From a virus (lineage: Duplodnaviria > Heunggongvirae > Uroviricota > Caudoviricetes), in IMG/VR virus record IMGVR_UViG_2897358383_000002: a stretch of DNA of 64,000 nucleotides; one strand, written 5' to 3'. Of this stretch, positions 7,626-35,099 are shown in pieces (position 1 is the stretch's first letter; each line of letters begins with the position of its first letter). A program made the position numbers and the translations under genes. The notes beneath the pieces are model-generated. The model was not told where the DNA came from. It worked only from the letters and a program-made list of their open reading frames with translations, and did not search any database.

Positions 7626-7866
7626 ACTCCGGCAGCTCCGCCGACTTTCGACAATGAAGTTATCGCTGGCGGCGATAGTTTTTGACTCGATTTTCATGGC
7701 GGTATATGTGCTCAATGAGACGTGGCCACTGGAACCGCTATTGTATGCCGGGCTTCGGCTGTGCCTGACATTTTTGAGCATGGCTGCGAGATTGATGCAG
7801 CAGAAAGAAACCGCTTCAGATTGTCCACGCCGCGCGGTGCGCAAATATATGGCACGAAGGCGATAA
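7612..7866 (+). CDS. hypothetical 84-aa protein with hydrophobic segment, immediately upstream of the IS200 left end
   Basis: ORF track only. Confidence 0.25.
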   Translation: MSMNKLRQLRRLSTMKLSLAAIVFDSIFMAVYVLNETWPLEPLLYAGLRLCLTFLSMAARLMQQKETASDCPRRAVRKYMARRR

Positions 7867-7874
7867 TAGTTAAC

Positions 7875-8585
7875 GAGAACCCCGGCAGCTGCCGGGGTTA
7901 TTTTTGTGCACAGAAAACCCCCAGCTAGGCTGGGGGTTCCGGAAAGCTTTCAGCTTTAAGCCAGTTATTAAAACCCCTTTTGATTTGTTAAAACACCTTG
8001 CGGTCTGGCAACTGCAAGTGTCAAACAAGAAATCAAAAGGGGGTCCCAATGGGGAACGAAAAGAGCTTAGCGCACACCCGATGGAACTGTAAATATCACA
8101 TAGTTTTTGCGCCAAAATACCGAAGACAGGTGTTCTACAGAGAGAAGCGTAGAGCAATAGGCAGTATTTTGAGAAAGCTGTGTGAGTGGAAAAGTGTACG
8201 GATTCTGGAAGCTGAATGCTGTGCAGATCATATCCATATGCTTGTGGAGATCCCGCCCAAAATGAGCGTATCCGGCTTTATGGGATATCTGAAAGGGAAA
8301 AGCAGTCTGATGCTTTACGAGCAGTTTGGTGATTTGAAATTCAAATACAGGAACAGGGAGTTCTGGTGCAGAGGGTACTACGTCGATACGGTGGGTAAGA
8401 ACACGGCGAAGATACAGGATTACATAAAGCACCAGCTTGAAGAGGATAAAATGGGAGAGCAGTTATCGATTCCCTATCCGGGCAGCCCGTTTACGGGCCG
8501 TAAGTAACGAAGTTGGATGCAAATGTCAGATCGTGTGCGCCTGTTAGGGCGCGGCTGGTAAGAGAGCCTTATAGGCGCATTTGAA
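7875..8585 (+). mobile_element. IS200-like insertion sequence (boundaries approximate)
   Basis: left-end perfect palindrome aaccccggcagctgccggggtt and a second stem-loop before the RBS; tnpA inside; about 710 bp. Confidence 0.6.
8049..8507 (+). CDS. tnpA: IS200 Y1 (HUH) transposase TnpA, 152 aa
   Basis: MGNEKSLAHTRWNCKYHIVFAPKYRR...HIHMLVEIPPK matches IS200 TnpA as I recall it; start moved to internal ATG at 8049. Confidence 0.9.
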   Translation: MGNEKSLAHTRWNCKYHIVFAPKYRRQVFYREKRRAIGSILRKLCEWKSVRILEAECCADHIHMLVEIPPKMSVSGFMGYLKGKSSLMLYEQFGDLKFKYRNREFWCRGYYVDTVGKNTAKIQDYIKHQLEEDKMGEQLSIPYPGSPFTGRK

Positions 8586-8588
8586 AAA

Positions 8589-8607
8589 CCTCCGGCTATG
8601 CCGGAGG
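8589..8607 (-). terminator. hairpin cctccggc-tat-gccggagg with U-run on minus strand, downstream of the putative protease gene
   Basis: 8-bp stem plus tttttc on minus strand. Confidence 0.5.
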
Positions 8608-8621
8608 ATATTTATTGGTGG

Positions 8622-9641
8622 TTATTTAAACGGATTGATTGAATTATTAAACGTGATGATGCTTGTCTCACGCGGTGCCTGGACGTTAGCCGCTTGCGGA
8701 ACCTCCTTAATTTTCTTGGTGACAGGCAAGTTGCGTGCGCCAACTTTGATCAGAGATTCGAAAAGTGTGGCAACGATTTTTGCATCACCAGGTTCTTTGA
8801 GGCGGAATGCGTCTTTTTGGGCGGCGGAGACGAAGATCGGGAGGTTATCCAGTTCGTCTTGCATTGCTGCCAGCACATCGTCGCGGATACCCGCTGTTTC
8901 CTCCAGCAAAGCGATTCGCGCTTCAGCATCTGCGATCTTGGCCATTGCTTCGAGGTGGCGGCCCTGGCTTTCGAGTAGTGCAGTTTCCAGTTCTGCCGTA
9001 CGCTCTGTCGCCTCCACCATCATTTCCAGTTCAGCCATTTTGCCGTAATGGGATATAACGGCCTGCACTGACTCGTCGGAGTACCCATGCGCCGCCAGGG
9101 ACTCTGCCAGTAAAGATTTAGAATCCGCGCTTTCAAACATTCCGGCGCTGGCAGGATGATCCAGACTGATATAGTTCGGCGTTGTCACATAATCCACACC
9201 ATGGAAGCTGGTGGTTACAGCGATTTTCCCGGACTCACGCCCGCCAGTGGCCCAGCTCCAGCCACCAGCTCGGCTTTCGATCATCGCGGCGACAATTTTA
9301 CCCGGCTCTGTGTTAAGAATTTCCTGTGTATGGGTAACGATGCCGTTGTCGTCAACGGATATAGCCACTGTGCGGCACGCTGGAACATTGTCGATTACGA
9401 CCGGGCGACCTTCCACCATGATTACGCTGGTTTCTGGTACTTCCAGTTTGCCGGTCAGCTGTCGGCGACCGTGACCGTAATAGCCGAAAAGCTCTCCAAG
9501 GCGTAAACCTTCCTGAGTTTCCTTGCTTTCAAGCATGGTCTTAACCGCGCTTAATACATACTGTCGCCCGTTCTGGCGACCTTTTCGAGCATTGCTATAG
9601 AGACAAAAGCGGTCAGTGACCGTTTTCAAAACATCAGTCAT
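8622..9641 (-). CDS. putative head maturation protease/scaffold (Pro-like), 339 aa, with C-terminal coiled-coil
   Basis: ORF track; position next to portal-like gene and darB as in P1 (from memory); no diagnostic motif confirmed. Confidence 0.4.
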   Translation of the reverse strand: MTDVLKTVTDRFCLYSNARKGRQNGRQYVLSAVKTMLESKETQEGLRLGELFGYYGHGRRQLTGKLEVPETSVIMVEGRPVVIDNVPACRTVAISVDDNGIVTHTQEILNTEPGKIVAAMIESRAGGWSWATGGRESGKIAVTTSFHGVDYVTTPNYISLDHPASAGMFESADSKSLLAESLAAHGYSDESVQAVISHYGKMAELEMMVEATERTAELETALLESQGRHLEAMAKIADAEARIALLEETAGIRDDVLAAMQDELDNLPIFVSAAQKDAFRLKEPGDAKIVATLFESLIKVGARNLPVTKKIKEVPQAANVQAPRETSIITFNNSINPFK

Positions 9642-9659
9642 TATATTGCCCTCCAGCTA

Positions 9660-10915
9660 CCTTACCTAATGTCTGTTGGTATATTGGCTTTGATAACATT
9701 TTCGTCCGTGTATTCATTTATATACTCATTAGTTTCAATGTATTATATAGAACATGAAGCGTGCCTATAAATATCGATTCTATCCAACTCCCGAACAAAC
9801 CGAGCTATTAGCCCGGACTTTTGGGTGTGTGCGTTTTGTCTATAACAGCCTCCTTCGCTGGCGCACCGATGCGTACTACGCACGCCATGAGAGGGTCGGC
9901 TATGCACAAGCCAGCGCCAAATTAACGGCACTGAAAAAAGAACCAGAATTCGCTTGGCTGAATGACGTTTCCTGCGTCCCCCTCCAGCAGTCTCTGCGCC
10001 ACCAACAAACGGCTTTTGCTAACTTTTTCGCCGGGCGTGCTGCATACCCAGTTTTTAAGAGCAAGCGGCATAAACAGGCCGCAGAACTAACTGCCAGCGC
10101 ATTTAAATACCGTGACGGCAAGCTGTACATGGCAAAGAGCAAAGAGCCGTTAGATGTTCGCTGGAGCCGTCCGTTGCCGTCTGCTCCATCCACTGTCACT
10201 ATCACCAGGGATGCTGCCGGACGATATTTTGTATCCTGTCTCTGCGAGTTTGAGCCTGTATCACTGCCGATCACCGTTTCCACGGTCGGCATTGATATTG
10301 GTTTAAAAGATTTGTTCGTCACCGATACCGGTTTTAAAACTGGCAATCCTCGACACAACGCTAAATACGCGAAGCGATTAGCAGTGTTACAGCGCAGATT
10401 GAGCAAGAAACAAAAAGGCTCAAAGAACCGCGCCAAAGCACGTTTAAAGGTTGCCCGCCTCCACGCGAGAATAGTCGATTGTCGGATGGATAACCTGCAT
10501 AAGTTGTCCCGCAAACTGATTAACGAAAACCAAGTTGTTTGCGTCGAATCCCTTAAAGTGAAAAACATGATCCGTAACCCGAAGCTGTCTAAAGCAATAG
10601 CTGACGCAGGCTGGAGCGAACTTGTACGCCAACTCCAGTACAAAGGAGAATGGGGTGGACGTAGCATTGTCGCTATCGACCAGTATTTCCCTTCTTCCAA
10701 ACGTTGCAGCAGTTGCGGCTTCACCATGCAAAAAATGCCTCTTAATATTCGTAAATGGCACTGCCCGGAATGTGGCGCAGAGCATGATCGTGATATTAAC
10801 GCGGCCCGTAATATAAAAGCTGCCGGGCTGGCAGTGTTAGCCCTTGGAGAGTCTGTAATTCCTAAGCCGCTTCATGTGGTTTAGGTCGGACTCTGTGAAT
10901 TGGGAATGTTTGCCG
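9660..10915 (+). mobile_element. IS605-family tnpB-only element (IS1341-like); ends not defined
   Basis: TnpB gene wedged between two head genes on the opposite strand. Confidence 0.4.
9754..10884 (+). CDS. tnpB: TnpB (OrfB of IS200/IS605 family; RuvC-like nuclease with C-terminal zinc finger), 376 aa
   Basis: N-terminal YRFYPTPEQ motif; C-terminal CSSCG...CPECG zinc finger. Confidence 0.9.
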   Translation: MKRAYKYRFYPTPEQTELLARTFGCVRFVYNSLLRWRTDAYYARHERVGYAQASAKLTALKKEPEFAWLNDVSCVPLQQSLRHQQTAFANFFAGRAAYPVFKSKRHKQAAELTASAFKYRDGKLYMAKSKEPLDVRWSRPLPSAPSTVTITRDAAGRYFVSCLCEFEPVSLPITVSTVGIDIGLKDLFVTDTGFKTGNPRHNAKYAKRLAVLQRRLSKKQKGSKNRAKARLKVARLHARIVDCRMDNLHKLSRKLINENQVVCVESLKVKNMIRNPKLSKAIADAGWSELVRQLQYKGEWGGRSIVAIDQYFPSSKRCSSCGFTMQKMPLNIRKWHCPECGAEHDRDINAARNIKAAGLAVLALGESVIPKPLHVV

Positions 10916-12713: not shown

Positions 12714-15700
12714 ATGAACAAGCTATTTATGGGGGTGTTTCGCTGTTCAAGTGTCAGCGAAATATTGAAATACATTAGGGCAATAACATCTCACCGAGCG
12801 CCGATTAAATACGGCGTGGAAAAGGTGGAAGGCAAAAGCTATGACCGACTGCGCCGGGAGGCGAATCAGAAGGCGATAGATTTGCTTAATTCGCTGGTGG
12901 ACGGCGCGACACTGACAGATGAACAGCGCCAGATCCTGGCTGGGTACACCGGTGAAGGCGGCATTGGCGGGTCCGTCTCCGAATATTACACACCAAAGCC
13001 GATCGCTGAAGGTGTCTGGGAGATCATGAAGCTCTACGGCGCGGACGTAGGTAACACTCTGGAACCATCGGCGGGAACCGGCGTTTTTAATGAGACAAAA
13101 CCGGTTGGTACGGTGATGACCGCGACTGAGATCAGCAGTGTTTCCGGTCGTATAAACCAGTTGTTACACCCGGAAGACAGCGTACAGATTTCCCCGTTCG
13201 AACAGCTGGCTATAAGCACGCCTAACGATTCATTCGACCATGTTGTGGGTAACGTTCCGTTCGGCGGTCGTGATAACACACGCAACATCGATAAGCCTTA
13301 CGCAGAAGAAACGGACATGGGTTCTTACTTCATGCTCCGCATGCTGGACAAGATAAAGCCAGGCGGATTCATGTGCGTGATTGTGCCGCCGTCCATTGTT
13401 TCAGGTTCAAACATGAAGCGGTTACGCCTGCGCTTATCCCGTAAAGCTGAATTTCTTGGCGCTCACCGCTTGCCTACCGGTACTTTTGACGCAAACGGGA
13501 CCAGTACAGTCGTTGATGTGGTGCTGATGCGCAAACATCCGGCAGAGATGGCTGAGAAAATCCCCCTGGTGGATGAAAGCACTCTTGAATCGGCAAATGT
13601 GCTTTGGCCAACGTTTATTTCTGGCAAGTGGTTTGAAAAGGATGGCCGCCGGTTTGTTCATGGCACCCAGGAAAAGGGCTTCCAGGGGCGTATTGAGGTT
13701 CGTGCCGACGGTCAGATTGATAACCAGGCTCTTAAAGCGAAGCTGATTCATCGTTTCGAAAGTCGTATCGACTGGTCTTTGCTCGATATGGCTGAACCGT
13801 CACCGACCGCAGATGTTGTTGATGAAGGGGAAATGCGCCTGATTAATGGCGTATGGCAAAAATATGCTGGTGGTCGCTGGATTGAAGCTGATGCTGGTAA
13901 GGAGCTTAAGATTGATGCTGCCAGTTATGGCGCGGATAGCTGGGAGGCTCTTCAGCGTAACCTGACTACAACAGAAGGCCGTCTCGGTATGACATTTACC
14001 CAGATGGCAAATGTCCGCGATAAGTACACCACATCAATCAGCGACGATATGGTGCAGCTGGTGGACTGGATTAACAGCCAGCCTGAAAAATACCGTGAAC
14101 GCTTGTATCGTGGGGCGATGATTGGCCGGATGTTAATTGAATATCAGGATATGAAGGCCGCCGGGCATAGTGCTGAACAAATCGAACAGCAGCGCCTTTC
14201 TCTGGTGTCCCGTTTGCAGGCAGAGATTGACCGTTTTGGTAACCCCGGTCGCGGTCCGATAGCTAAATTATCGGGAAGCGGTGCGCGCGCCTGGTTTGCT
14301 TTCCGTGGTGCAATTAAGCTGGATGGCACTATTTCTGACGAGCTAACAGGAAAGCTGGTTACGCATGATTCCAGCGCCAGTTATGACTCCACCAGCTATC
14401 AGGACACCCTGCGTTATCTCTATAGCGATCTTACCCGCGATCCAATCCAGCTCGATGATTTCCGCCTTGCGTTTACCGGCGAACTGCCAGCCAGTGATGA
14501 AGAGTTGCTTAATTTATTGGCCAGCACTCCTGGTATTGCGGTTTCTCCGTATGGCGGGATTGTTCCGTTCGCCCGCGCCACCAGCGGCGACATTAACGAG
14601 ATAGTGGCTCCAAAACAGGAATTCCTTGCCACACTCCCCGACGGTCCAGTAAAGAACAACGTCCTTAATCAGCTGGCAGCGATCGAAGAGAAGCGCATCA
14701 AGACGCCAGCAGAGAATATCCGCTTTAAGCTCAATAGCCGTTGGTTCGACCGCTCCGTCATTCTGGAGTTTTTGCAGGAAAACGGCTATCCGGATCTGCG
14801 CTATGTGCAGTCAGTGCAGCTGGAAGGCGACGAAATGGTTTCTGACACCTATCACGGTGGTGATGGCCTGTTCGTCGGGCACCGATACGGTGTCGTCCAG
14901 CGCAAGGATAAAGAAACAGGCGAGATCCGCTACGAGTGGGACCGTAAATCAGGTGAAAACGCGACCGGGTTCCCGGCACAGCTGGAAAAGTATCTCAATG
15001 GTGCGCGTATCGGTGGCAAAGATAGCGCGACGGCGAACGGCTACCGCGAGCAGATGGCACTGCTTGAGGACCAGTTCAATAAGTGGATCAAGACGCACGA
15101 TCGCTACGATGAACTGGTTGCCAAATACAACGATGTGTTCAATAGCAATATCCCGTATGAACACTCTGGCGATCCGCTTGGGTTGAAGGGATTAAGCGGT
15201 AAGCGCCAGCCATTTGATTACCAGAATAGCGAAGTGCGCCGACTGTCCGAAGATGGGCGCGGCATCCTGGGCTTCGGCACCGGGCTGGGTAAAACTACGA
15301 CCGCGCTGGCGCTTGAGGCGTTCAACTATGAGAACGGTCGCTCCACCCGTACTGCGTATGTAGTGCCTAAATCAGTGCTGGAAAACTGGTATTACGAAGC
15401 AAAAGAATTCCTGAGTGAAGAGGCATTCAGTAACTACCTGTTCGTCGGTCTTGATGTGCTGATGGATGGCGATCAGATTCGCCAGGTGCCGGTGCTCGAT
15501 GAGAACGGTAAACCTGTTCTTGGTACTGATGGCACTCCAGTTATGCGCGATGCCCTAAAACTGGCAGATGAAGCCACTATCACGGCGCGGATGAACGCGA
15601 TCCCGCACTCAAATTACCGTGCAGTCGTGTTTACCAAAGAACAATACGCCCGCATTCCGCTACGTGATGACACCGTAGATGAGCATGCACAGGATATGCT

Positions 15701-18700
15701 TTATGACTTCGTTGCCGCCGGGCGCGTAGCCAGCGCAATGGACTCCGACTCCCACCGCAAAGAGGCCGCGCGTCGCCGGGTATTGTCGGAGTATTCAGAT
15801 ACCGGCACCGAAAAAGCAGAGAAGTATCCGTACTTTGAGGATATGGGCTTCGATAGTGTGATCGCTGACGAAGGTCACAACTACCGCAATAGCTATAAAA
15901 ATGGTCGCGAAGCGTCACAACTGGCCTATCTGCCCACCAGCGCGGTGGCGCAATCGGCGCGGGATATGGCAATTAAAAACGCGTACCTGATGAAAAAGAA
16001 TGGTGGGCGCGGACCGGTTCTCCTGACTGCAACGCCAGTCGTTAACACCCCGATCGATGCATACAACATGCTTTCTCATGTGCTGCCGAAGGAATACTGG
16101 CAGAAGATGGGGATCTACGGTCCTGATGACTTCGTTAAATTCTTCGGCAAGACCAGGCTGGAAACGGTACAGAAAATCAGCGGTGAAGTTGAAGAAAAAA
16201 TGGCGCTGGTGGGCTTTGAAAACCTTGATGCGCTGCGCGGCATATTCCATCGCTGGACAACGCTTAAAACGGCGGAAGACGTTAAGGATACCGTGGAGAT
16301 CCCGGAACTGGACGAACACCAGCAGGATGCACCACTTACGGAAGAACAACTGGCGGCGTATGAAGAATTGCGTCAGCAGGCGGAAGCGGCAGCCAAAGCC
16401 AACAATGGCGTAACGACCTCGGTCAATGAAGACGGCGTGATTGAGCACGAGAAAGCCCGTCCGATCTTCTCAATAATCAGGGATATGGACCGCGTATGTA
16501 CTGACATGGACCTGTACTATCGCAGGATCACCTATCGTTTCCTGCCGGAGTACGCCGATGCGGTGCAGCAGCTGGCGGACAGTTTGCCTAAACAAGCCAC
16601 CAGCGAAGACGACGACAGTGATGATTCGATCACGCAGCAATCGCAATACTCCCTGATAGATAAGGGCGAGTTTATTCAGTTGCAGGTACCGGAAGCATTT
16701 GAGCAGGAAGTGAATAATCGCCTGGCCAAGTTTGGCATTGACGAACAGACCGTAACTCACCCCGTTACACCCAAATACGCGAAGCTGATCGCCACGCTGA
16801 AGGCGTTTTTCCCGGAAGGTAAGCAAATCATCTTCACGGACGAAAAAACGCAGCACCAGAAGCTCAAGCGCATTATCTGCAATGCTCTTAACCTTGAACC
16901 TTCAAAGGTGGGGATCCTGAATGCTCAGACGGTTGCCGAGGCAGGTAAAACCGGTAAGAAACTGAAAGCGGTTAAACCGCCGAAAGAGTTACCGGATGAA
17001 CCAACAGATGCACAGATAGCGAAATACAACGAGCAAATGGCTCTGTATGACGCCTATATCGCGCAGCAAAATGAAATGTCGTTGGGCGGTCTGGAAAAGA
17101 TTGCAGCCGACTTCCAGGAGGGCCGGACTCCGATCATCATCTGCAACAAAAAGGCAGAGGTGGGTATCAACCTGCATCGAGGAACGACTGACATCCATCA
17201 TCTGACGTTGCCATGGACACCAGCCAGTATCGCACAGCGTAACGGTCGCGGTGCTCGAGTTGGCTCCAACCGTGCAAGCGTTCGCGTTCATTACTACTGC
17301 GGCAAGGGTTCTTTCGATGAATACCGACTGAAGACGCTGAAGCGTAAAGCAGGCTGGATCTCCGATATCCTCCGTTCAGATAAGTCAGAAATGGAGAACG
17401 CCGACGCCAACGATATGATCGAAATGCAGATGTATACCGCTAAGGATGATGGCGAACGTCTGGTAATGATGCAGGTTCAAATGGATAAGGCGAAAGCTGC
17501 GAAACGCGCTCGCCAGAAAGAACAGGCTACTATCGACCTTCAGAACTACATCAAGGCGCAGCACGCAGCTGGTGAGGATGTGGAGGTACTTACCGCTGAA
17601 TTGGAGCGAAGCAAAGCGGAACTTGAAAAGACCACCGCCGACGTCGCCAAATTCAAACAGGCGGTAATGGCCAAAGCAGCTGATAACGCAGACTGGAAAG
17701 CCCGCTGGGGTAGCGTCCATCACACAGACCGTATGTTGTTAGCACAGTATCGCGCGTCGTTGAAAAGCGCCATTCAGCGCAAGGCTAATATCTCTCAGGC
17801 CATCTCCCGCTATGAGAAATTATTGAACCGTACTCAGAAGGCCGCGACGGATATCAAACGCCTGCGCCCGCTGGTGGAGGATGCAATAAATAAAGGCATT
17901 CTGGATGTTGATCCTGATCTGGTTAACCATGCGAATGAGTTCCTTGTTATCGGCGATCGCTCATGGCGTGTAGGCCAATACTATGATTGTGCCGGTGATA
18001 TCGTTCGCATTAAGTCGCTGGACTTCGACAGCCAGCGCGCAGACGTGGAGATCATCTTTACCTTCAAAGGCACCAAATCGGGTAACTGGGATGTGAAGAC
18101 GCTGGATAAACAGGTGGATGTAACTCCCGATGAAGATGCTGTTATGCAGAAAATCAGTGGTGGCGTCTCCATCGCCGGGATTAACGACATCATTTCCTGT
18201 GACGATTTCTACCGTTTCCAGCAGCGCGGCATGATCAAAATCACTGACTCATACGGCGTTCAGACTACAGAGTCAGGCTATAGCATTGATTTTGTTGGCA
18301 CCTATACGGACCCACTGAAGCATGCGGTTTACCCGGATCGCCGTGACGGCGCGCTGAAGTCGTCAATTGCAAAATGGGTGCTTGGTATGATGTCGGAAGG
18401 GAATAACCGCCAGATCCGTTCGGCAGAAACATTCCTGGTTGAATTGTTTGGCTCCAATTATGGCGATGTAATCGCGTCATACGGAGATACGCTATCCCCT
18501 GAAGCAATTCAGGAGAAAATAGCGGATGCGATCGCAAAAATGCCGGAGAAAACAAGCCAGGGGGCTACTCGTAACGGGGATTCTGAACTTGAGGTCACCA
18601 ATGCCATTTTCGGTACCCATGAGTTCCGGGCGTCAGATTATGAGATCACCACAGCACAGTTTGGCACCATTGGCATTTACAGCAATAAAGACGAGATCAA

Positions 18701-19481
18701 GCAGGCAATGGACGCAGCAAGTGCGCGCATTGCAGCAGAACGGAAAGCCAATCTGAATCATGCAGTCGCCGCGCTGACTCAATCGTGGGTAACAGCAATC
18801 AGGGAGGCCGCCACCACAGGAAAAATCACACCGGCAATTGCGGATGTCGTAAACGACGGCTCTAAATTTATGGATGCCTATCAAATGGATGCGGTGAAGT
18901 TGCCATCAGCCTATGGTCAACTCAGCTATCGCATGACCTACAACCTGGTATCAATGTTTTCCGACCTTGCCATCCTTGGGCTGGTGGATCTTAACGAGGT
19001 TACGCCGGAATTGCTCAGCATGCGCAAGAATCATGTGGAGATATTGCAGAGAGTTAACACGGTTCTTGCCGGACGCACCGATGAAGAGAAACAGGCCGAC
19101 GCTGATCGGATAAACCTGGCCCTTGGCAACATCACGGAGGAAGAAATTGCCGCCAGAAACGAGAAACAAGAAGAGTTATCATCAATACAGGGTGATGCCA
19201 CCAGCATAGCTCAGTCTCTTGGTCTGAATTATCGCGTATCCACCGCCGACCTGAAGATGATGTACGCACCAAAATTCGCCGCTGGCGAGGTATTTGGGCT
19301 TCAGGAAGCCTCAGGCATGAAAGGCGTTCTTTTCCGTGCGAAAGACGCAATCAAGGCGAAATTCGGCGCTCGCTGGCTGCCAGCGAAGGCGAAGAACAGC
19401 GATTTCCCGGGTAACTGGTGGATTATCGAGACAAAACACAACGTGGCGGACGTTCTGGCCGTCATCCAACAATACGCATAA
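12714..19481 (+). CDS. darB: DarB-like defence-against-restriction protein: N6-adenine methyltransferase domain fused to SF2 helicase, 2255 aa
   Basis: GNVPFGG methyltransferase motif; helicase motifs GFGTGLGKTT, DEGHNYRN, QRNGRGARVG; length matches P1 DarB as I recall. Confidence 0.9.
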   Translation: MNKLFMGVFRCSSVSEILKYIRAITSHRAPIKYGVEKVEGKSYDRLRREANQKAIDLLNSLVDGATLTDEQRQILAGYTGEGGIGGSVSEYYTPKPIAEGVWEIMKLYGADVGNTLEPSAGTGVFNETKPVGTVMTATEISSVSGRINQLLHPEDSVQISPFEQLAISTPNDSFDHVVGNVPFGGRDNTRNIDKPYAEETDMGSYFMLRMLDKIKPGGFMCVIVPPSIVSGSNMKRLRLRLSRKAEFLGAHRLPTGTFDANGTSTVVDVVLMRKHPAEMAEKIPLVDESTLESANVLWPTFISGKWFEKDGRRFVHGTQEKGFQGRIEVRADGQIDNQALKAKLIHRFESRIDWSLLDMAEPSPTADVVDEGEMRLINGVWQKYAGGRWIEADAGKELKIDAASYGADSWEALQRNLTTTEGRLGMTFTQMANVRDKYTTSISDDMVQLVDWINSQPEKYRERLYRGAMIGRMLIEYQDMKAAGHSAEQIEQQRLSLVSRLQAEIDRFGNPGRGPIAKLSGSGARAWFAFRGAIKLDGTISDELTGKLVTHDSSASYDSTSYQDTLRYLYSDLTRDPIQLDDFRLAFTGELPASDEELLNLLASTPGIAVSPYGGIVPFARATSGDINEIVAPKQEFLATLPDGPVKNNVLNQLAAIEEKRIKTPAENIRFKLNSRWFDRSVILEFLQENGYPDLRYVQSVQLEGDEMVSDTYHGGDGLFVGHRYGVVQRKDKETGEIRYEWDRKSGENATGFPAQLEKYLNGARIGGKDSATANGYREQMALLEDQFNKWIKTHDRYDELVAKYNDVFNSNIPYEHSGDPLGLKGLSGKRQPFDYQNSEVRRLSEDGRGILGFGTGLGKTTTALALEAFNYENGRSTRTAYVVPKSVLENWYYEAKEFLSEEAFSNYLFVGLDVLMDGDQIRQVPVLDENGKPVLGTDGTPVMRDALKLADEATITARMNAIPHSNYRAVVFTKEQYARIPLRDDTVDEHAQDMLYDFVAAGRVASAMDSDSHRKEAARRRVLSEYSDTGTEKAEKYPYFEDMGFDSVIADEGHNYRNSYKNGREASQLAYLPTSAVAQSARDMAIKNAYLMKKNGGRGPVLLTATPVVNTPIDAYNMLSHVLPKEYWQKMGIYGPDDFVKFFGKTRLETVQKISGEVEEKMALVGFENLDALRGIFHRWTTLKTAEDVKDTVEIPELDEHQQDAPLTEEQLAAYEELRQQAEAAAKANNGVTTSVNEDGVIEHEKARPIFSIIRDMDRVCTDMDLYYRRITYRFLPEYADAVQQLADSLPKQATSEDDDSDDSITQQSQYSLIDKGEFIQLQVPEAFEQEVNNRLAKFGIDEQTVTHPVTPKYAKLIATLKAFFPEGKQIIFTDEKTQHQKLKRIICNALNLEPSKVGILNAQTVAEAGKTGKKLKAVKPPKELPDEPTDAQIAKYNEQMALYDAYIAQQNEMSLGGLEKIAADFQEGRTPIIICNKKAEVGINLHRGTTDIHHLTLPWTPASIAQRNGRGARVGSNRASVRVHYYCGKGSFDEYRLKTLKRKAGWISDILRSDKSEMENADANDMIEMQMYTAKDDGERLVMMQVQMDKAKAAKRARQKEQATIDLQNYIKAQHAAGEDVEVLTAELERSKAELEKTTADVAKFKQAVMAKAADNADWKARWGSVHHTDRMLLAQYRASLKSAIQRKANISQAISRYEKLLNRTQKAATDIKRLRPLVEDAINKGILDVDPDLVNHANEFLVIGDRSWRVGQYYDCAGDIVRIKSLDFDSQRADVEIIFTFKGTKSGNWDVKTLDKQVDVTPDEDAVMQKISGGVSIAGINDIISCDDFYRFQQRGMIKITDSYGVQTTESGYSIDFVGTYTDPLKHAVYPDRRDGALKSSIAKWVLGMMSEGNNRQIRSAETFLVELFGSNYGDVIASYGDTLSPEAIQEKIADAIAKMPEKTSQGATRNGDSELEVTNAIFGTHEFRASDYEITTAQFGTIGIYSNKDEIKQAMDAASARIAAERKANLNHAVAALTQSWVTAIREAATTGKITPAIADVVNDGSKFMDAYQMDAVKLPSAYGQLSYRMTYNLVSMFSDLAILGLVDLNEVTPELLSMRKNHVEILQRVNTVLAGRTDEEKQADADRINLALGNITEEEIAARNEKQEELSSIQGDATSIAQSLGLNYRVSTADLKMMYAPKFAAGEVFGLQEASGMKGVLFRAKDAIKAKFGARWLPAKAKNSDFPGNWWIIETKHNVADVLAVIQQYA

Positions 19482-19514: not shown

Positions 19515-19955
19515 ATGGCCACACTATCTGATACAATAAAACCGAATAAAACATATCTTGAGGCGGTACTGCGTACGGCATTGTTAGGAAAGACAGAAGA
19601 CGAATACGTTGATTTCTTCCTGTCAGGGCTACGCGGGCGATTACTGAAAAATCCCCGCCTGTACCGCAGCTATGGCCCATACTGGCCGGAAATTAAAAAA
19701 TTATTACTGGAGCGCGGTTATGGTAATTTCGGTCGTCTCGTTGACCGTGACGTTCGCAAAATTTACCGTTATGACCGCCCGGCGCTAACACTCATAGCCG
19801 CGACGCTCTACAGCCAGGAGCGTTTTGATAATGGTCAGATATACTCAGCCTGGCATTTACTGCCAGTGCCTGAAGAAGTTGACGACCAGGACTATGAGTT
19901 TGAGTCTTACGATTTGGAAGTTGAAGCCTTGGCACAGGCTGGAGAGAAAACTTGA
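19515..19955 (+). CDS. hypothetical 146-aa protein (Ulx-like by position)
   Basis: ORF track; downstream of darB, upstream of the 82-aa ORF. Confidence 0.4.
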   Translation: MATLSDTIKPNKTYLEAVLRTALLGKTEDEYVDFFLSGLRGRLLKNPRLYRSYGPYWPEIKKLLLERGYGNFGRLVDRDVRKIYRYDRPALTLIAATLYSQERFDNGQIYSAWHLLPVPEEVDDQDYEFESYDLEVEALAQAGEKT

Positions 19956-20200
19956 AAAAGCGATACTACACAGTAAAGCATGGGACGCTACGAGCATTAC
20001 AAGAGTTTGCTGATAAGCATAACGTTGAGGTGCGCAGGGAAGGGGGAAGTAAAGCTCTGCGCATGTACCGCCCGGACGGGAAATGGCGGACGGTGGTCGA
20101 TTTCAAAACTAACAGTGTTCCCCAGGGCGTCCGCGATCGGGCATTCGAAGAATGGGAGCAGATCATCATAGATAACGCATTGCTCCTGAATGCAGATTGA
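19952..20200 (+). CDS. hypothetical 82-aa protein (Lxc/Bof-like by size and position)
   Basis: ORF track; overlaps the stop of the upstream ORF. Confidence 0.4.
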   Translation: MKKRYYTVKHGTLRALQEFADKHNVEVRREGGSKALRMYRPDGKWRTVVDFKTNSVPQGVRDRAFEEWEQIIIDNALLLNAD

Positions 20201-20201
20201 C

Positions 20202-20230
20202 AATTTTGCCCGGAATTACCGGGCAAAATT
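20202..20230. terminator. bidirectional hairpin terminator aattttgcccgg-aatta-ccgggcaaaatt between convergent genes
   Basis: perfect 12-bp stem seen in sequence. Confidence 0.6.
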
Positions 20231-20236
20231 AAGCAA

Positions 20237-21373
20237 CTATCCTTCGTTACGAAGATGCTTATCTAAGAATTTTGTAAACTGGTTTGTTGAGCCAAAATAG
20301 TTGGGGTAGGCTTTTTTTAGTGACTTAATGTTATCTGTAGCAACGAGAACAGATATCAATACATTAGGATTAGAATCGTCTTTATTTAAGGCCTCAAGGG
20401 CTTCATCTGCTTCTTTTGTTTTAAATGCGCGAACAGACACTAGGAACATTTTTTTGTTTTTTGTATTGGGCTTGTTTTCTGCATTTCTCATTGTTACTAA
20501 GTAATGCCCCTTATGATTTTTTGGCAACTTCTTAATCAAATTCGCGTCAGAAGTTAAATTTAAGGCGATGGTGTATGTGCTTAGTTTCCTCCGTACAGAT
20601 AAAGTCCGTTCCAGCTCTTTAAGCTCGCCTTCATACTGAGATACAACTAGCTCATCAAGAGTGCAGGCTTTTTCGTCGTGCGCTACAAGACATCCGGCTA
20701 GATAGAAAAATCGTCTCCATTCTGGATGCCCTTCACTTGAAGTTTTCAGCTTGATACCTTCAAGGGTATCAATTATTTCAAGGCTGGTAGCCCAAGCATG
20801 CTGCAATTGAGTTCTTAACTGTATCTCAATCTTTGTTTTTCGCCACGGATATTGATCCTCTTTCTGATCGAAGCAACTGTATGCAAGGTGGATTCCACTA
20901 TAGCCGCTGTCTTTGGGAGTAAGATAATCATACTCTTTAACAATCCTATGAACAGATTTGCTTTTTAAAAGACGTTCCTTTAGCTGTATCAACTGGTCTA
21001 AGTTTCTGACAATGGCCCTACATCCGCCAACGTCCTGCATCCGTGTTAATTTAATTGCATTGCTAGTTCTGCCTCCATCAAGACTAGGACGCTCTAGTTT
21101 ATCTATTATGGTAGAAAGTCGCTTAAGTCTTCTTGCAACGAGAATCTTTTTGTCCTTGTCAACCTTAGCAGCTGCTCTTGCTAAATGATTTTTCATGAGC
21201 ATTAATGGATAAAGATGCAGCTCACGGAAATTTTGTATCATTTCAATAGATTGCTGCCTTTCTTCGTCACTACACCCGTGCCTTATCAATTGAGCAGCCC
21301 TATCAATTTGAGATTTTGAATATTTCAACTTGCATTTTTGACTTTGATAAACTTCATTCCCCATTGCTTTCAT
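20237..21373 (-). CDS. RelA/SpoT-fold nucleotidyltransferase (toxic small alarmone synthetase type) with long C-terminal extension; CapRel-like fused toxin-antitoxin candidate, 378 aa
   Basis: motifs DVGGCRAIV, GYSGIHLAY, EIQLRTQLQHAWA; AT-rich; no separate antitoxin ORF adjacent. Confidence 0.75.
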   Translation of the reverse strand: MKAMGNEVYQSQKCKLKYSKSQIDRAAQLIRHGCSDEERQQSIEMIQNFRELHLYPLMLMKNHLARAAAKVDKDKKILVARRLKRLSTIIDKLERPSLDGGRTSNAIKLTRMQDVGGCRAIVRNLDQLIQLKERLLKSKSVHRIVKEYDYLTPKDSGYSGIHLAYSCFDQKEDQYPWRKTKIEIQLRTQLQHAWATSLEIIDTLEGIKLKTSSEGHPEWRRFFYLAGCLVAHDEKACTLDELVVSQYEGELKELERTLSVRRKLSTYTIALNLTSDANLIKKLPKNHKGHYLVTMRNAENKPNTKNKKMFLVSVRAFKTKEADEALEALNKDDSNPNVLISVLVATDNIKSLKKAYPNYFGSTNQFTKFLDKHLRNEG

Positions 21374-21466
21374 CCATTTTAAATGATTTACATGCTGTTA
21401 CATCTAATGATAAAGCGGTTAGAAAATCAATGGAGAATGTAACCACAAAATTACTGTATGTAATTG

Positions 21467-22108
21467 TTAAAAATAATTATGCTTGCCTGTTAATACCCCT
21501 TTCGGCACTTTTTTTTGTTCCAGTATCTGGGTGCCCAGAATTATGTTAATCAGTGGACTTAGTAACGATGGTTCTTGGCGGGCCTCAACTTCTCCAGCCA
21601 TTGCCCTGATGTAGTCGGCGCTGGCAACGTTGTTGTATTCCGTCGCAAAGCAACATAGTAACGTCAGAACATGCTCTGTCGTTATTTCGCTCCAGTTGAT
21701 GTTGAAAAATTCATCGCCTTTTTTATCGTGTTCGGAATCGAAGATGCTTTGGTGGAGAATGTATTTGCCGGATTCCTTGCGCGGTAACTTGATTGCTTTC
21801 TGGCGTTCCAGCTCCTTATAAATCTGCATTGCCTCAATTAGTACCGGCCTGCCGTTCATGAAGGGATCGCGCAACCTTACACGCTGGCCAACTCGACCAG
21901 TAATAAAGCTGTTTTCCTCTTCCACCAGCACGATAAAACCCTTTTCCTCTTTTTCTCGCAATTCGCGCAGCAGCTGGAGTTCCATATCGCGGCGGCGTTC
22001 AGGGTAGCTGGTCCGCTCAGCCATTATCAGCTCGTTATTGATCCATGCAGCAGTCATTGACGCCGGTTTGCCGACGCTCATCGACACAACGCATATTTTC
22101 TTATCCAT
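21467..22108 (-). CDS. hypothetical 214-aa protein (possibly Mat-like by position)
   Basis: start chosen at MDKKICVV with GGGGG RBS; backbone-like GC content. Confidence 0.4.
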   Translation of the reverse strand: MDKKICVVSMSVGKPASMTAAWINNELIMAERTSYPERRRDMELQLLRELREKEEKGFIVLVEEENSFITGRVGQRVRLRDPFMNGRPVLIEAMQIYKELERQKAIKLPRKESGKYILHQSIFDSEHDKKGDEFFNINWSEITTEHVLTLLCCFATEYNNVASADYIRAMAGEVEARQEPSLLSPLINIILGTQILEQKKVPKGVLTGKHNYF

Positions 22109-22297: not shown

Positions 22298-22858
22298 TTA
22301 GTGCATGATGTTTGCCATCTCATAGGCGTCAGCCAGCAACTCCATCTCTGACTTGTTCAGCAAGGTGAATTCTTTCTTGCCTCCAACCACACCATCGGCA
22401 TGAACAGGGACCAGCCAGGGGTATTTTTCTCTTACTTCAGCCGGTGCTGCATGCTGGTGGTGCCATCTACAAAGGGGCAATTGCTTTTTGTGACAACCCG
22501 GCGCGGTACGACCGGAGATATGGTGCAGAGATACCTCTTCAGATATTACTCCATGCATGTAGCAGGCAATGCAGGGGAGAGCGCCAAGAGCATTGGCGAT
22601 GCGCCGTTCCTCCGCCGTTGGTGTTCTCCCCTTCAAGCCACGAGATTTTATTTTTACCGCGCTTTTCCGCGTTTTGCTGGCTGGTGGGCGCTCTTTCTGT
22701 TTAGCGATACGGCGGTCGATAGAATCCCGCATTTTCTGATATTGCGATTCTCGCCAAGCGGGGTCAGCCAACTTTTCCCGTTGCCGAGCGATCGCTCGTT
22801 CTCTGGCAGCCTTCTGCCACTCGCGGCGCTGTTCAAGTTTTTGTTCGATTGTTTTCAT
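22298..22858 (-). CDS. ref: Ref-like HNH endonuclease (recombination enhancement function), 186 aa
   Basis: start chosen at MKTIEQKLEQ; Cys/His-rich HNH-like core; adjacent to cre; C1 operator upstream. Confidence 0.8.
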   Translation of the reverse strand: MKTIEQKLEQRREWQKAARERAIARQREKLADPAWRESQYQKMRDSIDRRIAKQKERPPASKTRKSAVKIKSRGLKGRTPTAEERRIANALGALPCIACYMHGVISEEVSLHHISGRTAPGCHKKQLPLCRWHHQHAAPAEVREKYPWLVPVHADGVVGGKKEFTLLNKSEMELLADAYEMANIMH

Positions 22859-22956: not shown

Positions 22957-22973
22957 CAATCAATTAGAGCAAT
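22957..22973 (-). promoter_or_regulatory. C1 operator-like site upstream of ref (14/17)
   Basis: core attgctctaat conserved. Confidence 0.5.
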
Positions 22974-23104: not shown

Positions 23105-23416
23105 TTATTTCATCATGGAAGCTGTTAACGCTTTGGATCTTGCTGAACTGATTGAAAGGGCATTGTTTACCTTACCCAGGAGTTCGCCAAATTCCGCCAT
23201 CACTCTAGTAAGCCCGCGCCGCGCTTCCTCCTCCGTTGCATTCATCACAAAATGTTCAGCACTCCGCATACTTTTAACGGGGAACGCAACAGATATCGAG
23301 TCGATATCAGGCATCCTATCGCTCAACTTTACGGTGACAATGACAGATGGTGACTGAATTTGAGAGCTTACAGACAGCACCACATATTTTCCGTCTATTT
23401 TGAAATCCTTCCGCAT
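23105..23416 (-). CDS. hypothetical 103-aa protein between cre and ref (Cra-like by position)
   Basis: ORF track; position. Confidence 0.4.
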   Translation of the reverse strand: MRKDFKIDGKYVVLSVSSQIQSPSVIVTVKLSDRMPDIDSISVAFPVKSMRSAEHFVMNATEEEARRGLTRVMAEFGELLGKVNNALSISSARSKALTASMMK

Positions 23417-23466: not shown

Positions 23467-24498
23467 CTAATCGCCATCTTCCAGCAGGCGCACCATTGCC
23501 CCCGTTTCACTATCCAGGTTACGGATATAGTTCATGACAATATTTACGTTGGTCCAGCCACCAGCTTGCATGATCTCCGGTATTGAAACTCCGGCGCGGG
23601 CCATATCTCGCGCGGCTCCGACACGGGCACTGTGTCCAGACCAGGCCAGGTATCTCTGACCAGAGTCATCCTTAGCGCCGTAAATCAATCGATGAGTTGC
23701 TTCAAAAATCCCTTCCAGGGCGCGAGTTGATAGCTGGCTGGTGGCAGATGGCGCGGCAACACCATTTTTTCTGACACGGCAAAACAAGTAGTTATTCGGA
23801 TCATCAGCCACACCAGAGACAGAAATCCATCGCTCGACCAGTTTAGTTACCCCCAGGCTAAGTGCCTTCTCTACACCTGCGGTGCTAACCAGCGTTTTCG
23901 TTCTGCCAATATGGATTAACATTCTCCCACCGTCAGTACGTGAGATATCTTTAACCCTGATCCTGGCAATTTCGGCTATACGTAATAGGGTGTTATAAGC
24001 AATCCCCAGAAATGCCAGATTACGTATATCCTGGCAGCGATCGCTATTTTCCATGAGTGAACGAACCTGGTCGAAATCAGTGCGTTCGAACGCCAGTGCC
24101 TGTTTTGCACGTTCACCGGCATCAACGTTTTCTTTTCGGATCCGTCGCATGACCAGTGAAACAGCATTACTGTCACTTGGTCGTGGCAGCCCGGACCGAC
24201 GATGAAGCATGTTTAGCTGGCCCAAATGTTGCTGGATAGTTTTTACTGCCAGACCGCGCGCCTGAAGATATAGAAGATAATCGCGAACATCTTCAGGTTC
24301 TGCGGGAAACCATTTCCGGTTATTCAACTTGCACCATGCCGCCCACGACCGGCAAACGGACAGAAGCATTTTCCAGGTATGCTCAGAAAACGCCTGGCGA
24401 TCCCTGAACATGTCCATCAGGTTCTTGCGAACCTCATCACTCGTTGCATCGACCGGTAATGCAGGCAAATTTTGGTGTACGGTCAGTAAATTGGACAT
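23467..24498 (-). CDS. cre: Cre site-specific tyrosine recombinase, 343 aa
   Basis: translation MSNLLTVHQNLPALPVDATSDEVRKNL...MVRLLEDGD matches canonical Cre as I recall it. Confidence 0.98.
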   Translation of the reverse strand: MSNLLTVHQNLPALPVDATSDEVRKNLMDMFRDRQAFSEHTWKMLLSVCRSWAAWCKLNNRKWFPAEPEDVRDYLLYLQARGLAVKTIQQHLGQLNMLHRRSGLPRPSDSNAVSLVMRRIRKENVDAGERAKQALAFERTDFDQVRSLMENSDRCQDIRNLAFLGIAYNTLLRIAEIARIRVKDISRTDGGRMLIHIGRTKTLVSTAGVEKALSLGVTKLVERWISVSGVADDPNNYLFCRVRKNGVAAPSATSQLSTRALEGIFEATHRLIYGAKDDSGQRYLAWSGHSARVGAARDMARAGVSIPEIMQAGGWTNVNIVMNYIRNLDSETGAMVRLLEDGD

Positions 24499-25062: not shown

Positions 25063-25085
25063 TTGACAATTGCTCTAATAAATTA
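25063..25085 (+). promoter_or_regulatory. C1 operator (attgctctaataaatta, 16/17) abutting a TTGACA -35 hexamer; candidate coi-c1 promoter/operator
   Basis: TTGACA at 25063..25068 directly followed by operator. Confidence 0.6.
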
Positions 25086-26527: not shown

Positions 26528-27646
26528 TTATTCAGCCGCCACCGGTTTTAACAAGCCAGCATCGAGCAGTTTACGCGTCAACCACTGCTGGCCTTTACCC
26601 GTTAATTGAGGCGTCAACCGTATCTGGTAGCCATCTTCATCATCCAGCACCACTTCTTTCACCGTGAAATACCCCGCGTTGATGTACTGCTGGAACGGCA
26701 CATTTTTACGTCCACCGGACGCTATCAGGATGCCGTTCTCCCGTAACCAGACAAACAGCGCGTTTTGTTTAAGTCCAACAACCTTTGCAAAATTCCCAAT
26801 CAGGATCCCTTTAGCTACTGATACCCGGTCGGCAAAATCGACTTTAGGAGCGGCGGCCACCAGCTGCTGATTTAGCTGGTGGGCTTTCTGTTCCAGAAGT
26901 TGCTTTTGTTCAGCCAGTTCGGCAGCCAGGCGTAGGGCTTCAGGAAGCGTCTGGGGGATTGCGATCGGTTGCTGTTCTTTTTGTCGGAAGTAGCTGTCTT
27001 CCAGTTTTTCAAAGAATGCCCATGCCTGATCGGTTTCGAGCATTTTAGCGTGGCGGGCTGCGCCGCGTTCTGTCCAGAGGGTGAGTGAGCGAACATTGCG
27101 AGCAATTTTTACAGAGTAGTTTAAAGCTACTCTGTGCTTCAACTCGCGCAATGATTCTCCTTCAACTTTGAAAAAGTGCTTCCCTTCAACAAAGCGTACT
27201 TTGTTCTCATGATGATTTTGGCGAATACGGATTGTTTCTGTCCCATACCCTCTAGCAAGAGTCTCGGTTGTCACTACACGCACTCCCTGCCATTCCAGAA
27301 CGGGAATTTCATCAGACTGATTCTGAACAACCACCAGCTCCGATTCTTGAACTGAAGGTGCATGAATTTTTTCTGATTTAACGTTAGTTGCTTTCATTCT
27401 GTGTGCCTCCTTGCGTGCTTCGGCTGCGGCGGTTGCGTAATTCAGATGACCCTGTTCGAGCAGGTATTCGCGGATATCAGACAACAGGATACGGTGAACC
27501 GCGTTCTTGTCCTTTCTCCGGTAAAGTTGTTTGGTGATCATGAAGTAGTTGGCAATAACGCCTGGTATATCCCTGGTACTGATACAGGCAGTGTGCTGTT
27601 CAATTGCCTCGATCATCTCTTCACGGGTGACTAATGACGTTCTCAT
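26528..27646 (-). CDS. phage antirepressor-like protein (ORF6N-type N-terminal domain plus KilA-C/ANT-type C-terminal domain), 372 aa
   Basis: motifs VLEWQGVRVVTTETLARGYG...VRFVEGKHFF and C-terminal ...VPFQQYINAGYF...; translationally coupled to upstream small ORF. Confidence 0.65.
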   Translation of the reverse strand: MRTSLVTREEMIEAIEQHTACISTRDIPGVIANYFMITKQLYRRKDKNAVHRILLSDIREYLLEQGHLNYATAAAEARKEAHRMKATNVKSEKIHAPSVQESELVVVQNQSDEIPVLEWQGVRVVTTETLARGYGTETIRIRQNHHENKVRFVEGKHFFKVEGESLRELKHRVALNYSVKIARNVRSLTLWTERGAARHAKMLETDQAWAFFEKLEDSYFRQKEQQPIAIPQTLPEALRLAAELAEQKQLLEQKAHQLNQQLVAAAPKVDFADRVSVAKGILIGNFAKVVGLKQNALFVWLRENGILIASGGRKNVPFQQYINAGYFTVKEVVLDDEDGYQIRLTPQLTGKGQQWLTRKLLDAGLLKPVAAE

Positions 27647-27864: not shown

Positions 27865-28183
27865 ATTGGCAGCCTCCTTAGACGTTGGTATGTAACCACC
27901 GCAGAAGAGACCAATCTTGCTGGCGGTGGACTGTACGGAGTTGGCCTTACTGGCGTCCAAGGTAACCAGCCTACCCGAAGGTAGCCCCATACAGCCCACC
28001 ATTGTAGAGGTGTGCGTGTACGCCGATACAAAAAAAAGACGCGAGCGGCGTCTGTATCGCCTTAGACTTAAGCGGGAGGCCAATCCCGGCACCCGTTTTA
28101 ATGAGGTGCCTGATAAGCATAAACCGAAAATGCCTCAAGGCGCAAGAGGTCAGGCTCAATGTAACATCGGTAGTTAAAAAACA

Positions 28184-33540: not shown

Positions 33541-35099
33541 ATGAAAATGACAAGTATTCAACAACGTGCAGAGCTTCATCGCCAGATCTGGCAAATTGCT
33601 AACGATGTCAGGGGTTCAGTCGATGGATGGGATTTTAAGCAGTACGTTTTGGGCGCGCTTTTTTACCGTTTTATCAGCGAAAATTTTTCCAGCTATATTG
33701 AAGCCGGTGATGACAGTATCTGTTATGCGAAACTGGATGACAGCGTAATTACTGATGACATTAAAGACGATGCCATCAAAACCAAAGGTTACTTCATCTA
33801 CCCCAGTCAGCTTTTCTGCAACGTAGCGGCGAAAGCAAATACCAATGACAGACTGAATGCGGATTTAAACAGCATCTTCGTTGCTATCGAAAGTTCTGCT
33901 TACGGTTATCCTTCAGAAGCTGACATCAAAGGTTTGTTTGCTGATTTCGATACAACCAGTAACCGCCTGGGGAATACCGTTAAGGATAAAAATGCCCGCC
34001 TGGCTGCGGTTCTGAAAGGGGTTGAAGGGTTAAAACTTGGTGACTTCCACGAACATCAGATTGACCTGTTCGGTGACGCCTATGAGTTCCTGATTTCTAA
34101 CTATGCGGCGAATGCCGGTAAGTCAGGCGGCGAGTTCTTTACACCGCAGCACGTCTCTAAGCTGATTGCACAACTGGCTATGCACGGGCAGACCCACGTT
34201 AACAAAATCTACGACCCGGCAGCAGGCTCCGGTTCGCTGTTGTTGCAGGCTAAAAAACAGTTTGATGACCATATCATCGAAGAAGGTTTTTTTGGTCAGG
34301 AAATCAACCATACGACCTATAACCTGGCGCGTATGAACATGTTTTTGCACAACATCAACTACGACAAGTTTGATATCAAGCTGGGTAATACACTGACTGA
34401 GCCGCACTTCAGAGATGAAAAACCGTTTGATGCCATCGTTTCTAACCCGCCGTATTCGGTGAAATGGATTGGCAGCGATGACCCGACGCTGATTAACGAT
34501 GAACGTTTTGCCCCGGCTGGCGTTCTGGCCCCCAAATCCAAAGCTGACTTTGCGTTTGTATTACATGCGCTGAACTATCTTTCGGCCAAAGGTCGCGCTG
34601 CGATTGTCTGCTTCCCAGGCATTTTTTACCGTGGCGGCGCGGAGCAGAAAATCCGTCAGTATCTGGTCGATAATAACTATGTCGAAACCGTGATTTCACT
34701 GGCTCCGAACCTGTTCTTTGGCACCACCATTGCCGTAAACATTCTGGTTCTGTCTAAACATAAAACGGATACCAAAGTTCAGTTTATTGACGCCAGCGAA
34801 CTGTTCAAAAAAGAGACTAACAACAACATCCTGACCGATGCCCATATCGAAAAAATTATGCAGGTATTTGCCAGCAAGGAAGATGTTGCTCATCTGGCGA
34901 AATCTGTTGCGTTTGAGACTGTTGTCGCGAATGACTATAACCTGTCGGTGAGCAGCTATGTGGAAGCGAAAGATACTCGCGAAATTATCGATATCGCTGA
35001 GCTGAATGCTGAGCTGAAAACCACGGTCAGCAAAATCGACCAGTTGCGCAAAGATATTGATGCGATTGTGGCTGAAATTGAAGGCTGCGAGGTGCAGAA

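Follow-up and report, generated by a model that had tools for sequence, protein, structure and literature searches.

A distinct CapRel-family gene as probable anti-phage cargo in the mat–lxc slot of a P1-like phage-plasmid

The IMG/VR virus record IMGVR_UViG_2897358383_000002 (Caudoviricetes) provided a stretch of 64,000 nucleotides, here called the window, that belongs to a P1-like phage-plasmid. Between the conserved genes lxc and mat, this element carries as cargo a single minus-strand gene that very probably encodes a CapRel-family fused toxin-antitoxin, an anti-phage sensor-effector. The observations that carry this identification are the sequence of the protein, the order of its domains, its functional residues, its fold, the lack of a separate antitoxin and its genomic slot. 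The closest characterised relative is CapRel^SJ46 of Salmonella phage SJ46 (J46_0058; PDB 7ZTB and 9ERV; Zhang et al. 2022, 2024). An earlier reading, made from the letters of the DNA without database searches (the sequence-only reading), had proposed a CapRel-like protein here and left open whether it was the published one. Alignment gives 73.7% overall identity to CapRel^SJ46 (275/373), by which the window gene is a distinct CapRel allele and not the published protein.

Identity and domain architecture

The minus-strand open reading frame (ORF) of 378 amino acids (aa) described in the sequence-only reading is present (Table 1), and the three motifs quoted from it (DVGGCRAIV, GYSGIHLAY and EIQLRTQLQHAWA) all occur in the translation. 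The length stands for the maximal ORF but not for the likely protein, as the real start is likely the second in-frame ATG, at 21364 (M4), which gives 375 aa. This start is favoured because several indications agree on it: the NCBI PGAP annotation begins there (WP_000526244.1, 1128 nt), the representative of the 313-member 90%-identity cluster has 375 aa, and the crystallised SJ46 protein starts at the methionine equivalent to M4. A Shine-Dalgarno-like TGGATG also lies upstream of the 21364 ATG, and the MG(N/S)E start recurs in the Kluyvera and Erwinia relatives, in which the three-codon extension is not conserved.

In agreement with the sequence-only reading, no antitoxin ORF adjoins the gene, the gaps to the P1 backbone genes being only 36 nt (stop to lxc stop) and about 100 nt (start to mat stop). 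Three small plus-strand ORFs that overlap the gene (58, 76 and 77 aa) were considered as antitoxins and rejected, as they lie antisense within the coding sequence (CDS) and are not annotated by PGAP.

Profile and sequence searches recover CapRel over the whole length of the protein. Using phmmer, aa 4-374 align onto residues 1-370 of 7ZTB_A with one single-residue gap (E 4.9e-185). A search of all PDB sequences is headed by 7ZTB ("Salmonella tRNA pyrophosphokinase CapRel") and by 9ERV, in which CapRel is bound to Bas11 Gp54, both at E ~1e-185 and end to end. PADLOC returns a full-length match to the candidate family PDC-S33 (E 6.7e-86, 287 bits), and no model named 'CapRel' appeared in the PADLOC version searched. 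Because CapRel^SJ46 matches the same model equally strongly (290 bits, E 7e-87), PDC-S33 is that library's name for CapRel-type proteins.

The RelA/SpoT fold that had been proposed for the N-terminal half is borne out by the Pfam match to PF04607 and by structural matches to CapRel and to small alarmone synthetase (SAS) structures. The C-terminal extension also has the fused CapRel architecture, with an end-to-end alignment to 7ZTB, the same domain order, and both catalytic and autoinhibitory residues kept. In CapRel^SJ46, R79 and R116 coordinate adenine, Y155 is the G-loop catalytic residue whose substitution (Y155A) abolishes defence, and the YXXY motif (Y352/Y355) occludes the ATP site of the closed form (PMC9712102). 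Substitution of the interface residues A77, V338, L339, A341 and A351 leads to constitutive toxicity (PMC9712102). All of these functional residues (A77, R79, R116, Y155, V338, L339, A341, A351, Y352 and Y355, in SJ46 numbering) are kept in the window protein. Across an alignment of 62 homologues, R79, D111, G114, R116, G154, Y155, H159, E180, Q182, R184, T185 and Y353 are invariant, and Y356 nearly so.

An AlphaFold2 model built on this 62-sequence family alignment has a mean predicted local distance difference test score (pLDDT) of 82 and a predicted template modelling score (pTM) of 0.80. Its C-terminal part consists of strands (E) and helices (H) in the order E286-294, E307-315, H316-330, E335-343, H346-352 and H360-374, a strand-strand-helix-strand topology followed by helices that equals the published arrangement of pseudo-zinc-finger domain and anchors. 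The pseudo-zinc-finger domain of the window protein thus comprises three β-strands and one helix, and aa 270-375 contain no cysteine, as expected of such a domain. When the model, which covers both halves, is searched with Foldseek, the CapRel structures 9ERV and 7ZTB rank first (E ~1e-40, TM 0.69-0.76). The root-mean-square deviation (RMSD) of the model from the open crystal form is 9-10 Å despite 70% identity. This would fit a model in a predicted closed state that is set apart from the open crystal structure by a rigid-body movement, and the authors of CapRel^SJ46 report a closed versus open difference for their own AlphaFold model (PMC9712102).

Genomic context and exchange of cargo

The element is P1-like, with genes in the order darB, ulx, lxc, capRel ORF, mat, ref, c8 and cre. 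Alignment (blastn) to P1 (NC_005856) shows 98% identity up to 20198, at the lxc stop, and 94% from 21466, at the mat stop, with no alignment to P1 between these positions. The corresponding P1 interval (3469..9751) contains res, mod and IS5. The breaks therefore match exactly the res/mod slot between the lxc-like ORF and mat/ref in which the sequence-only reading had placed the gene, and the interval it had marked (20202..21466) is essentially the cassette. The AT-rich islet it described is equally evident: the cassette has a GC content of 38.1% and the flanks have 50.5% and 48.3%, and over 20200-21600 the GC content drops to 36-41% from about 50% on either side.

Its description of the slot as a swappable defence locus is also supported, as the content of the slot varies across about 700 P1-like plasmids. 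Depending on the element, the slot holds type III restriction-modification (R-M) genes (EcoP1I res/mod) or either of two CapRel alleles, while in RCS47 and several plasmids it is empty, with 40 bp from lxc to mat. Other P1-like elements carry a SIR2-family protein (PADLOC PDC-S25, with a ThsA-like SIR2 domain), a DUF2971 protein (PDC-S31), a PIN-domain protein (partial PDC-S34), a YaaC-family protein with a 169-aa partner, a GNAT acetyltransferase, or a helix-turn-helix (HTH) protein with an EAL fragment. PADLOC matched neither the YaaC pair nor the GNAT nor the HTH/EAL cargo; these are candidate defence genes. The SJ46 phage is a Punavirus, and its CapRel sits between a "maturation control protein" and lxc, i.e. 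in the same slot. The sharp junctions at two stop codons suggest homologous recombination in the conserved flanks as the route of exchange.

A hairpin formed by a perfect 12-bp inverted repeat lies between the convergent lxc and capRel genes (Table 1). It had been read as a bidirectional terminator. The strong hairpin itself is confirmed, with folding energies of -18.2 and -21.4 kcal/mol, but a 3' U-tract is absent on both strands and a consensus terminator scan did not call it. Its sequence is more suggestive of a terminator-like or RNA-stabilising hairpin than of a canonical terminator. Each alternative cargo brings its own, different hairpin beside the lxc stop.

Prevalence and maintenance

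Only 71 of the 708 PLSDB records with matching flanks have a CapRel-type cassette that spans at least 80% of the query. At a protein identity of at least 99%, the window allele occurs in 46 PLSDB plasmids and the SJ46 allele in about 22. The cassette is present in 82 of 5426 complete Escherichia coli genomes (about 1.5%), almost always on plasmids of ~95 kb, and the allele is common in P1-like phage-plasmids of clinical and livestock E. coli. A 2025 preprint (10.1101/2025.09.12.675607) had already noted CapRel or dGTPase systems as common in P1-like elements of E. coli, and type III R-M in those of Salmonella.

Wherever it is found, the cassette is at least 99% identical, and in many E. coli P1-like plasmids it is 100% identical. 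Polymorphism within the allele is limited to isolated single substitutions (L13V, N332D and V341I). An intact ORF and an identity of at least 99% in 82 genomes argue for a maintained, functional gene.

Proposed mechanism and expression

The mechanism and defence phenotypes of CapRel have been published (PMC9712102, PMC11578894, PMC13423816), and pyrophosphorylation of tRNA 3' CCA ends has been demonstrated for CapRel^SJ46 (PMC9712102, PMC13423816), as have the toxicity of its N-terminal domain on its own and the rescue from this toxicity by the C-terminal domain. By homology to CapRel^SJ46, the window protein would be expected to be expressed in the lysogen, to be autoinhibited, to act on tRNA and to provide defence. 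A weak promoter inside the cassette would probably drive its constitutive, low-level production. In the resting protein, the C-terminal pseudo-zinc-finger domain would be folded back onto the N-terminal toxSYNTH domain, and the YXXY motif would then insert between R79 and R116 and block the site for ATP, the pyrophosphate donor. Upon superinfection, a specific protein of the incoming phage would bind the pseudo-zinc-finger domain and the anchor helices and so prevent the closed state. The opened enzyme would move pyrophosphate from ATP onto tRNA 3' CCA ends, and the resulting stop in translation would abort the infection, to the benefit of the lysogens as a population and of the P1-like element they carry.

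A putative weak sigma-70 promoter can be proposed in the cassette (Table 1). Its position is conserved upstream of capRel in the window, in SJ46 and in Kluyvera, and it is this positional conservation that suggests a promoter. Read-through from the mat promoters is also possible, because capRel and mat are co-directional and a consensus scan detected no terminator between them. A search for P1 C1 operators (consensus ATTGCTCTAATAAATTT, up to 3 mismatches) found 16 operator-like sites elsewhere in the window, against 0.4 expected by chance (for example 55471..55487, 25069..25085, 39844..39860 and 22957..22973), and none inside the capRel cassette. The search at this threshold did not pick up the Omat site known from the end of ref in P1. 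Direct control of capRel by C1 was thus considered and rejected, and the operator-free cassette fits constitutive expression in the lysogen.

Trigger specificity and alternative readings

Several points weigh against a functional defence gene of the kind described above. The copy in phage vB_EcoM-673R5 (6010..7109) is split into two ORFs by a frameshift, and in several plasmids (NZ_AP024520, AP024522, CP103610) the gene is interrupted by the IS5-like insertion sequence ISKpn26. Such disrupted copies indicate that the gene is dispensable for the element and sometimes lost. A consensus promoter scan called no promoter upstream of capRel, the candidate being weak and below threshold, and the closed conformation of the AlphaFold2 model is implied by its RMSD only. 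In a literature search, neither an experiment on this allele nor a mention of WP_000526244 turned up. Finally, the trigger is not transferable by homology, because an identity of 70% to SJ46 does not keep CapRel^Ebc of Enterobacter chengduensis from sensing something unrelated, namely T7 Gp0.4 together with FtsZ (PMC13423816).

The differences between the window protein and CapRel^SJ46 are unevenly distributed along the chain. In SJ46 numbering, identity is 77% in the toxin half (residues 1-269), 65% in the sensor half (residues 270-373, where 36 of 104 positions differ) and 55% in the pseudo-zinc-finger core (residues 285-335). This agrees with the pattern across the family, in which column entropy peaks in the sensor, reaching 2.55 bits over aa 276-325 where the catalytic core has 0.25-1.3. 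The proportion of nonsynonymous differences (pN) is 0.16 in the toxin half and 0.21-0.26 in the sensor. The proportion of synonymous differences (pS) is 0.80-0.97, which is saturated, so that no dN/dS ratio can be computed. As synonymous sites are saturated, the two alleles are anciently diverged and not recent variants. The pS values, obtained from 20237..21364 and the SJ46 locus 6010..7131, exceed the 0.75 expected at full saturation. The GC content at third codon positions is 0.35 in the window gene and 0.30 in the SJ46 gene, both being AT-rich at these positions.

The specificity of the window allele may overlap with that of CapRel^SJ46 or differ from it, as judged from these substitutions. 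It is about as likely as not that the two alleles are anciently diverged sensors which P1-like phage-plasmids exchange at one fixed locus and which bind separate phage proteins. In that case the remodelled β6-β7 loop and the surface of the pseudo-zinc-finger domain would define a new trigger specificity, and the allele pair would form a natural same-locus system for mapping how pseudo-zinc-finger sensors are retargeted.

The competing explanation, judged plausible but somewhat short of an even chance, is that the window allele and CapRel^SJ46 share one trigger range (the major capsid protein of the SECΦ27 type and/or Bas11 Gp54), so that the window allele would be functionally redundant. Most residues linked to sensing are indeed kept (L270, D273, N275, L276, K278, L280, L307 and K316, with R314 conservatively replaced by K), and the anchor-1 helix is nearly alike (LTSDANLIKK here, LTSDANLKKS in SJ46). 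Nevertheless, K269N, K277I and S279K alter anchor 1, and a different substitution at the last of these positions, S279P, is known to impair sensing of Gp54. The β6-β7 loop, described as a contact site for the capsid A-domain, is remodelled, being one residue longer and carrying about 7 substitutions (NAENKPNTKNKKMF here versus NAITK-NGKDTGKF in SJ46). The low identity of the pseudo-zinc-finger core also tells against a shared trigger range, as does the observation that CapRel sensing can be switched on or off by single substitutions.

The toxin could, alternatively, act in the manner of FaRel-type toxic SAS (toxSAS) enzymes, which kill through (pp)pApp synthesis and ATP depletion and not by modifying tRNA. 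Both chemistries are, according to PMC11782079, known among toxSAS enzymes. This is very improbable, however, as the toxin half is 77% identical to that of CapRel^SJ46, reported to be a tRNA pyrophosphokinase, while FaRel2/ATfaRel2 is only a distant structural match in Foldseek (E 3e-3).

Stabilisation of the P1-like plasmid by post-segregational killing, rather than phage defence, would be conceivable as the main role of a toxin-antitoxin module on a low-copy plasmid prophage. Such plasmid addiction is just as improbable. A fused polypeptide has no separately degradable antitoxin, and sister elements that carry R-M, SIR2 or other defence-type cargo in the slot, or, as is often the case, leave it empty, indicate that the module is not needed for maintenance. 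Moreover, anti-phage activity has been demonstrated for CapRel^SJ46, which occupies the same slot.

Least credible of all is an ordinary SAS that makes (p)ppGpp for stress signalling, since, although database names such as 'GTP pyrophosphokinase' and '(p)ppGpp synthetase' and the RelA_SpoT domain would allow it, the NCBIfam YjbM equivalog (NF053588) scores 35.5 bits against a cut-off of 320, canonical SAS structures (RelP, RelQ/YjbM) match only residues ~79-196 in the PDB sequence search (E ~1e-8) and only the N-terminal half in Foldseek (~1e-7), the protein has 375 aa and an extra C-terminal domain where housekeeping enzymes have a single domain of ~200-230 aa, the 170-aa C-terminal pseudo-zinc-finger region and YXXY motif are specific to CapRel, and the closest characterised relative modifies tRNA.

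Features of the window

The coordinates of the gene, its domains, its cassette and the neighbouring P1-like genes are collected in Table 1.

Table 1. Coordinates of capRel, its cassette and flanking genes in the 64,000-nucleotide window
Feature	Coordinates	Strand	Remarks
capRel-like maximal ORF	20237..21373	-	378 aa, from alternative in-frame ATG at 21373
capRel-like CDS from conserved start (M4)	20237..21364	-	375 aa plus stop
N-terminal toxin half, toxSYNTH RelA/SpoT nucleotidyltransferase core	20558..21364	-	aa 1-269; R79, R116 and G-loop Y155 present
RelA_SpoT Pfam match PF04607	about 20786..21130	-	E 3e-12; aa 82-196 in 378-aa numbering
G-loop Y155 codon	20900..20902	-	from residue mapping onto SJ46
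C-terminal antitoxin/sensor half	20240..20557	-	aa 270-375: anchor-1 helix, cysteine-free pseudo-zinc-finger domain, anchor-2 helices
YXXY autoinhibition motif, Y353-P-N-Y356 (= SJ46 Y352/Y355)	20297..20308	-	from alignment to SJ46
Perfect 12-bp inverted repeat, 5-nt loop	20202..20230		AATTTTGCCCGG-TAATT-CCGGGCAAAATT, between convergent lxc and capRel
Putative weak sigma-70 promoter in cassette	21402..21430	-	-35 TTGATT (21425..21430), 17-nt spacer, -10 TTAGAT (21402..21407)
Cargo cassette replacing P1 res/mod	20199..21466		1268 bp, 38.1% GC, lxc stop to mat stop
lxc (modulator of C1), conserved left flank	19952..20200	+	
ulx	19515..19955		
darB	12714..19481		
mat (maturation control), conserved right flank	21467..22108	-	co-directional with and upstream of capRel
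ref	22298..22858		
c8	23105..23416		
cre	23467..24498		exact Cre sequence

Other parts of the window hold further features. A complete type I R-M operon lies at 33541..39594 (+), with hsdM (520 aa), hsdS (418 aa) and hsdR (1038 aa, with an EcoR124_C domain), and the 122-bp gap between hsdS and hsdR is too small for a prrC-like gene. As this operon is present and res/mod is replaced, the element has lost the type III system of P1 and carries a type I system elsewhere. Three tRNA genes on the minus strand (53145..53220, 54652..54727 and 54730..54805; a Met-type with CAT anticodon, Thr-TGT and Asn-GTT) are of note only because CapRel toxins target tRNA 3' ends. Rfam matches above the gathering score comprise C4 antisense RNA, isrK and the Hfq-binding small RNA STnc490 (27919..28006 (-), 28032..28109 (-) and 7916..8039 (+)). 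The C4 antisense RNA represents the immI region and adjoins the ANT/KilAC antirepressor gene at 26528..27646.

Significance

CapRel is a well-studied bacterial immune protein that directly senses phage proteins. The identification made here is correct but largely expected, as CapRel is already known, also from a P1-like phage; the occupation of the same slot by the published CapRel^SJ46 makes the finding less novel, and no new principle comes with the gene. Knowing what triggers the window allele would nevertheless add a data point on the evolution of the sensor and on the phages that are excluded by widespread plasmids, with relevance to phage therapy and P1-based tools. The broader value lies in the mat–lxc locus, which exchanges single-gene cargo, several of these genes being uncharacterised, and which therefore offers a cheap hunting ground for defence genes.

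Comparison with known systems

The nearest system is CapRel^SJ46. The two proteins have 375 and 373 aa, agree in domain order and can be aligned over their full length, with differences at 99 of 373 aligned residues, and both genes occupy the mat–lxc slot of a P1-like phage-plasmid. Homology between their cassettes extends over the whole length and takes in the upstream region and the context of the start codon, but the downstream hairpins differ.

CapRel^Ebc and CapRel^Kp of Klebsiella pneumoniae belong to the same fused CapRel family and were compared by their published descriptions. CapRel^Ebc resembles the window allele in its distance from SJ46 (identity ~70%) and in the concentration of its differences in the C-terminal domain. 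The identity of this half to SJ46 is 65% for the window allele and 47% for CapRel^Ebc, and the G-loop tyrosine is at position 153 in CapRel^Ebc and 155 in the window allele. Every named member of the 90% cluster to which the window allele belongs is from E. coli. A homologue scan of genome contigs found only 4 loci (Kluyvera, Erwinia and Enterobacter sp.), none of them from E. chengduensis.

With the bicistronic toxSAS systems (PhRel/ATphRel of mycobacteriophage Phrann and FaRel2/ATfaRel2), the window gene shares a toxin of the RelA/SpoT fold. In these systems toxin and antitoxin are separate, whereas in the window they form one polypeptide, and the published bicistronic antitoxins are homologous to the C-terminal domain of CapRel (PMC9712102).

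The EcoP1I type III R-M system (res/mod) of P1 occupies the identical mat–lxc interval and, as would be expected of the window gene, also defends the lysogen against superinfecting phages. The proteins are unrelated, and the mode of defence differs, being restriction of DNA in EcoP1I and abortive translation arrest in the CapRel type. The cargo differs in size as well, at 6.3 kb for EcoP1I in P1 and 1.27 kb in the window.

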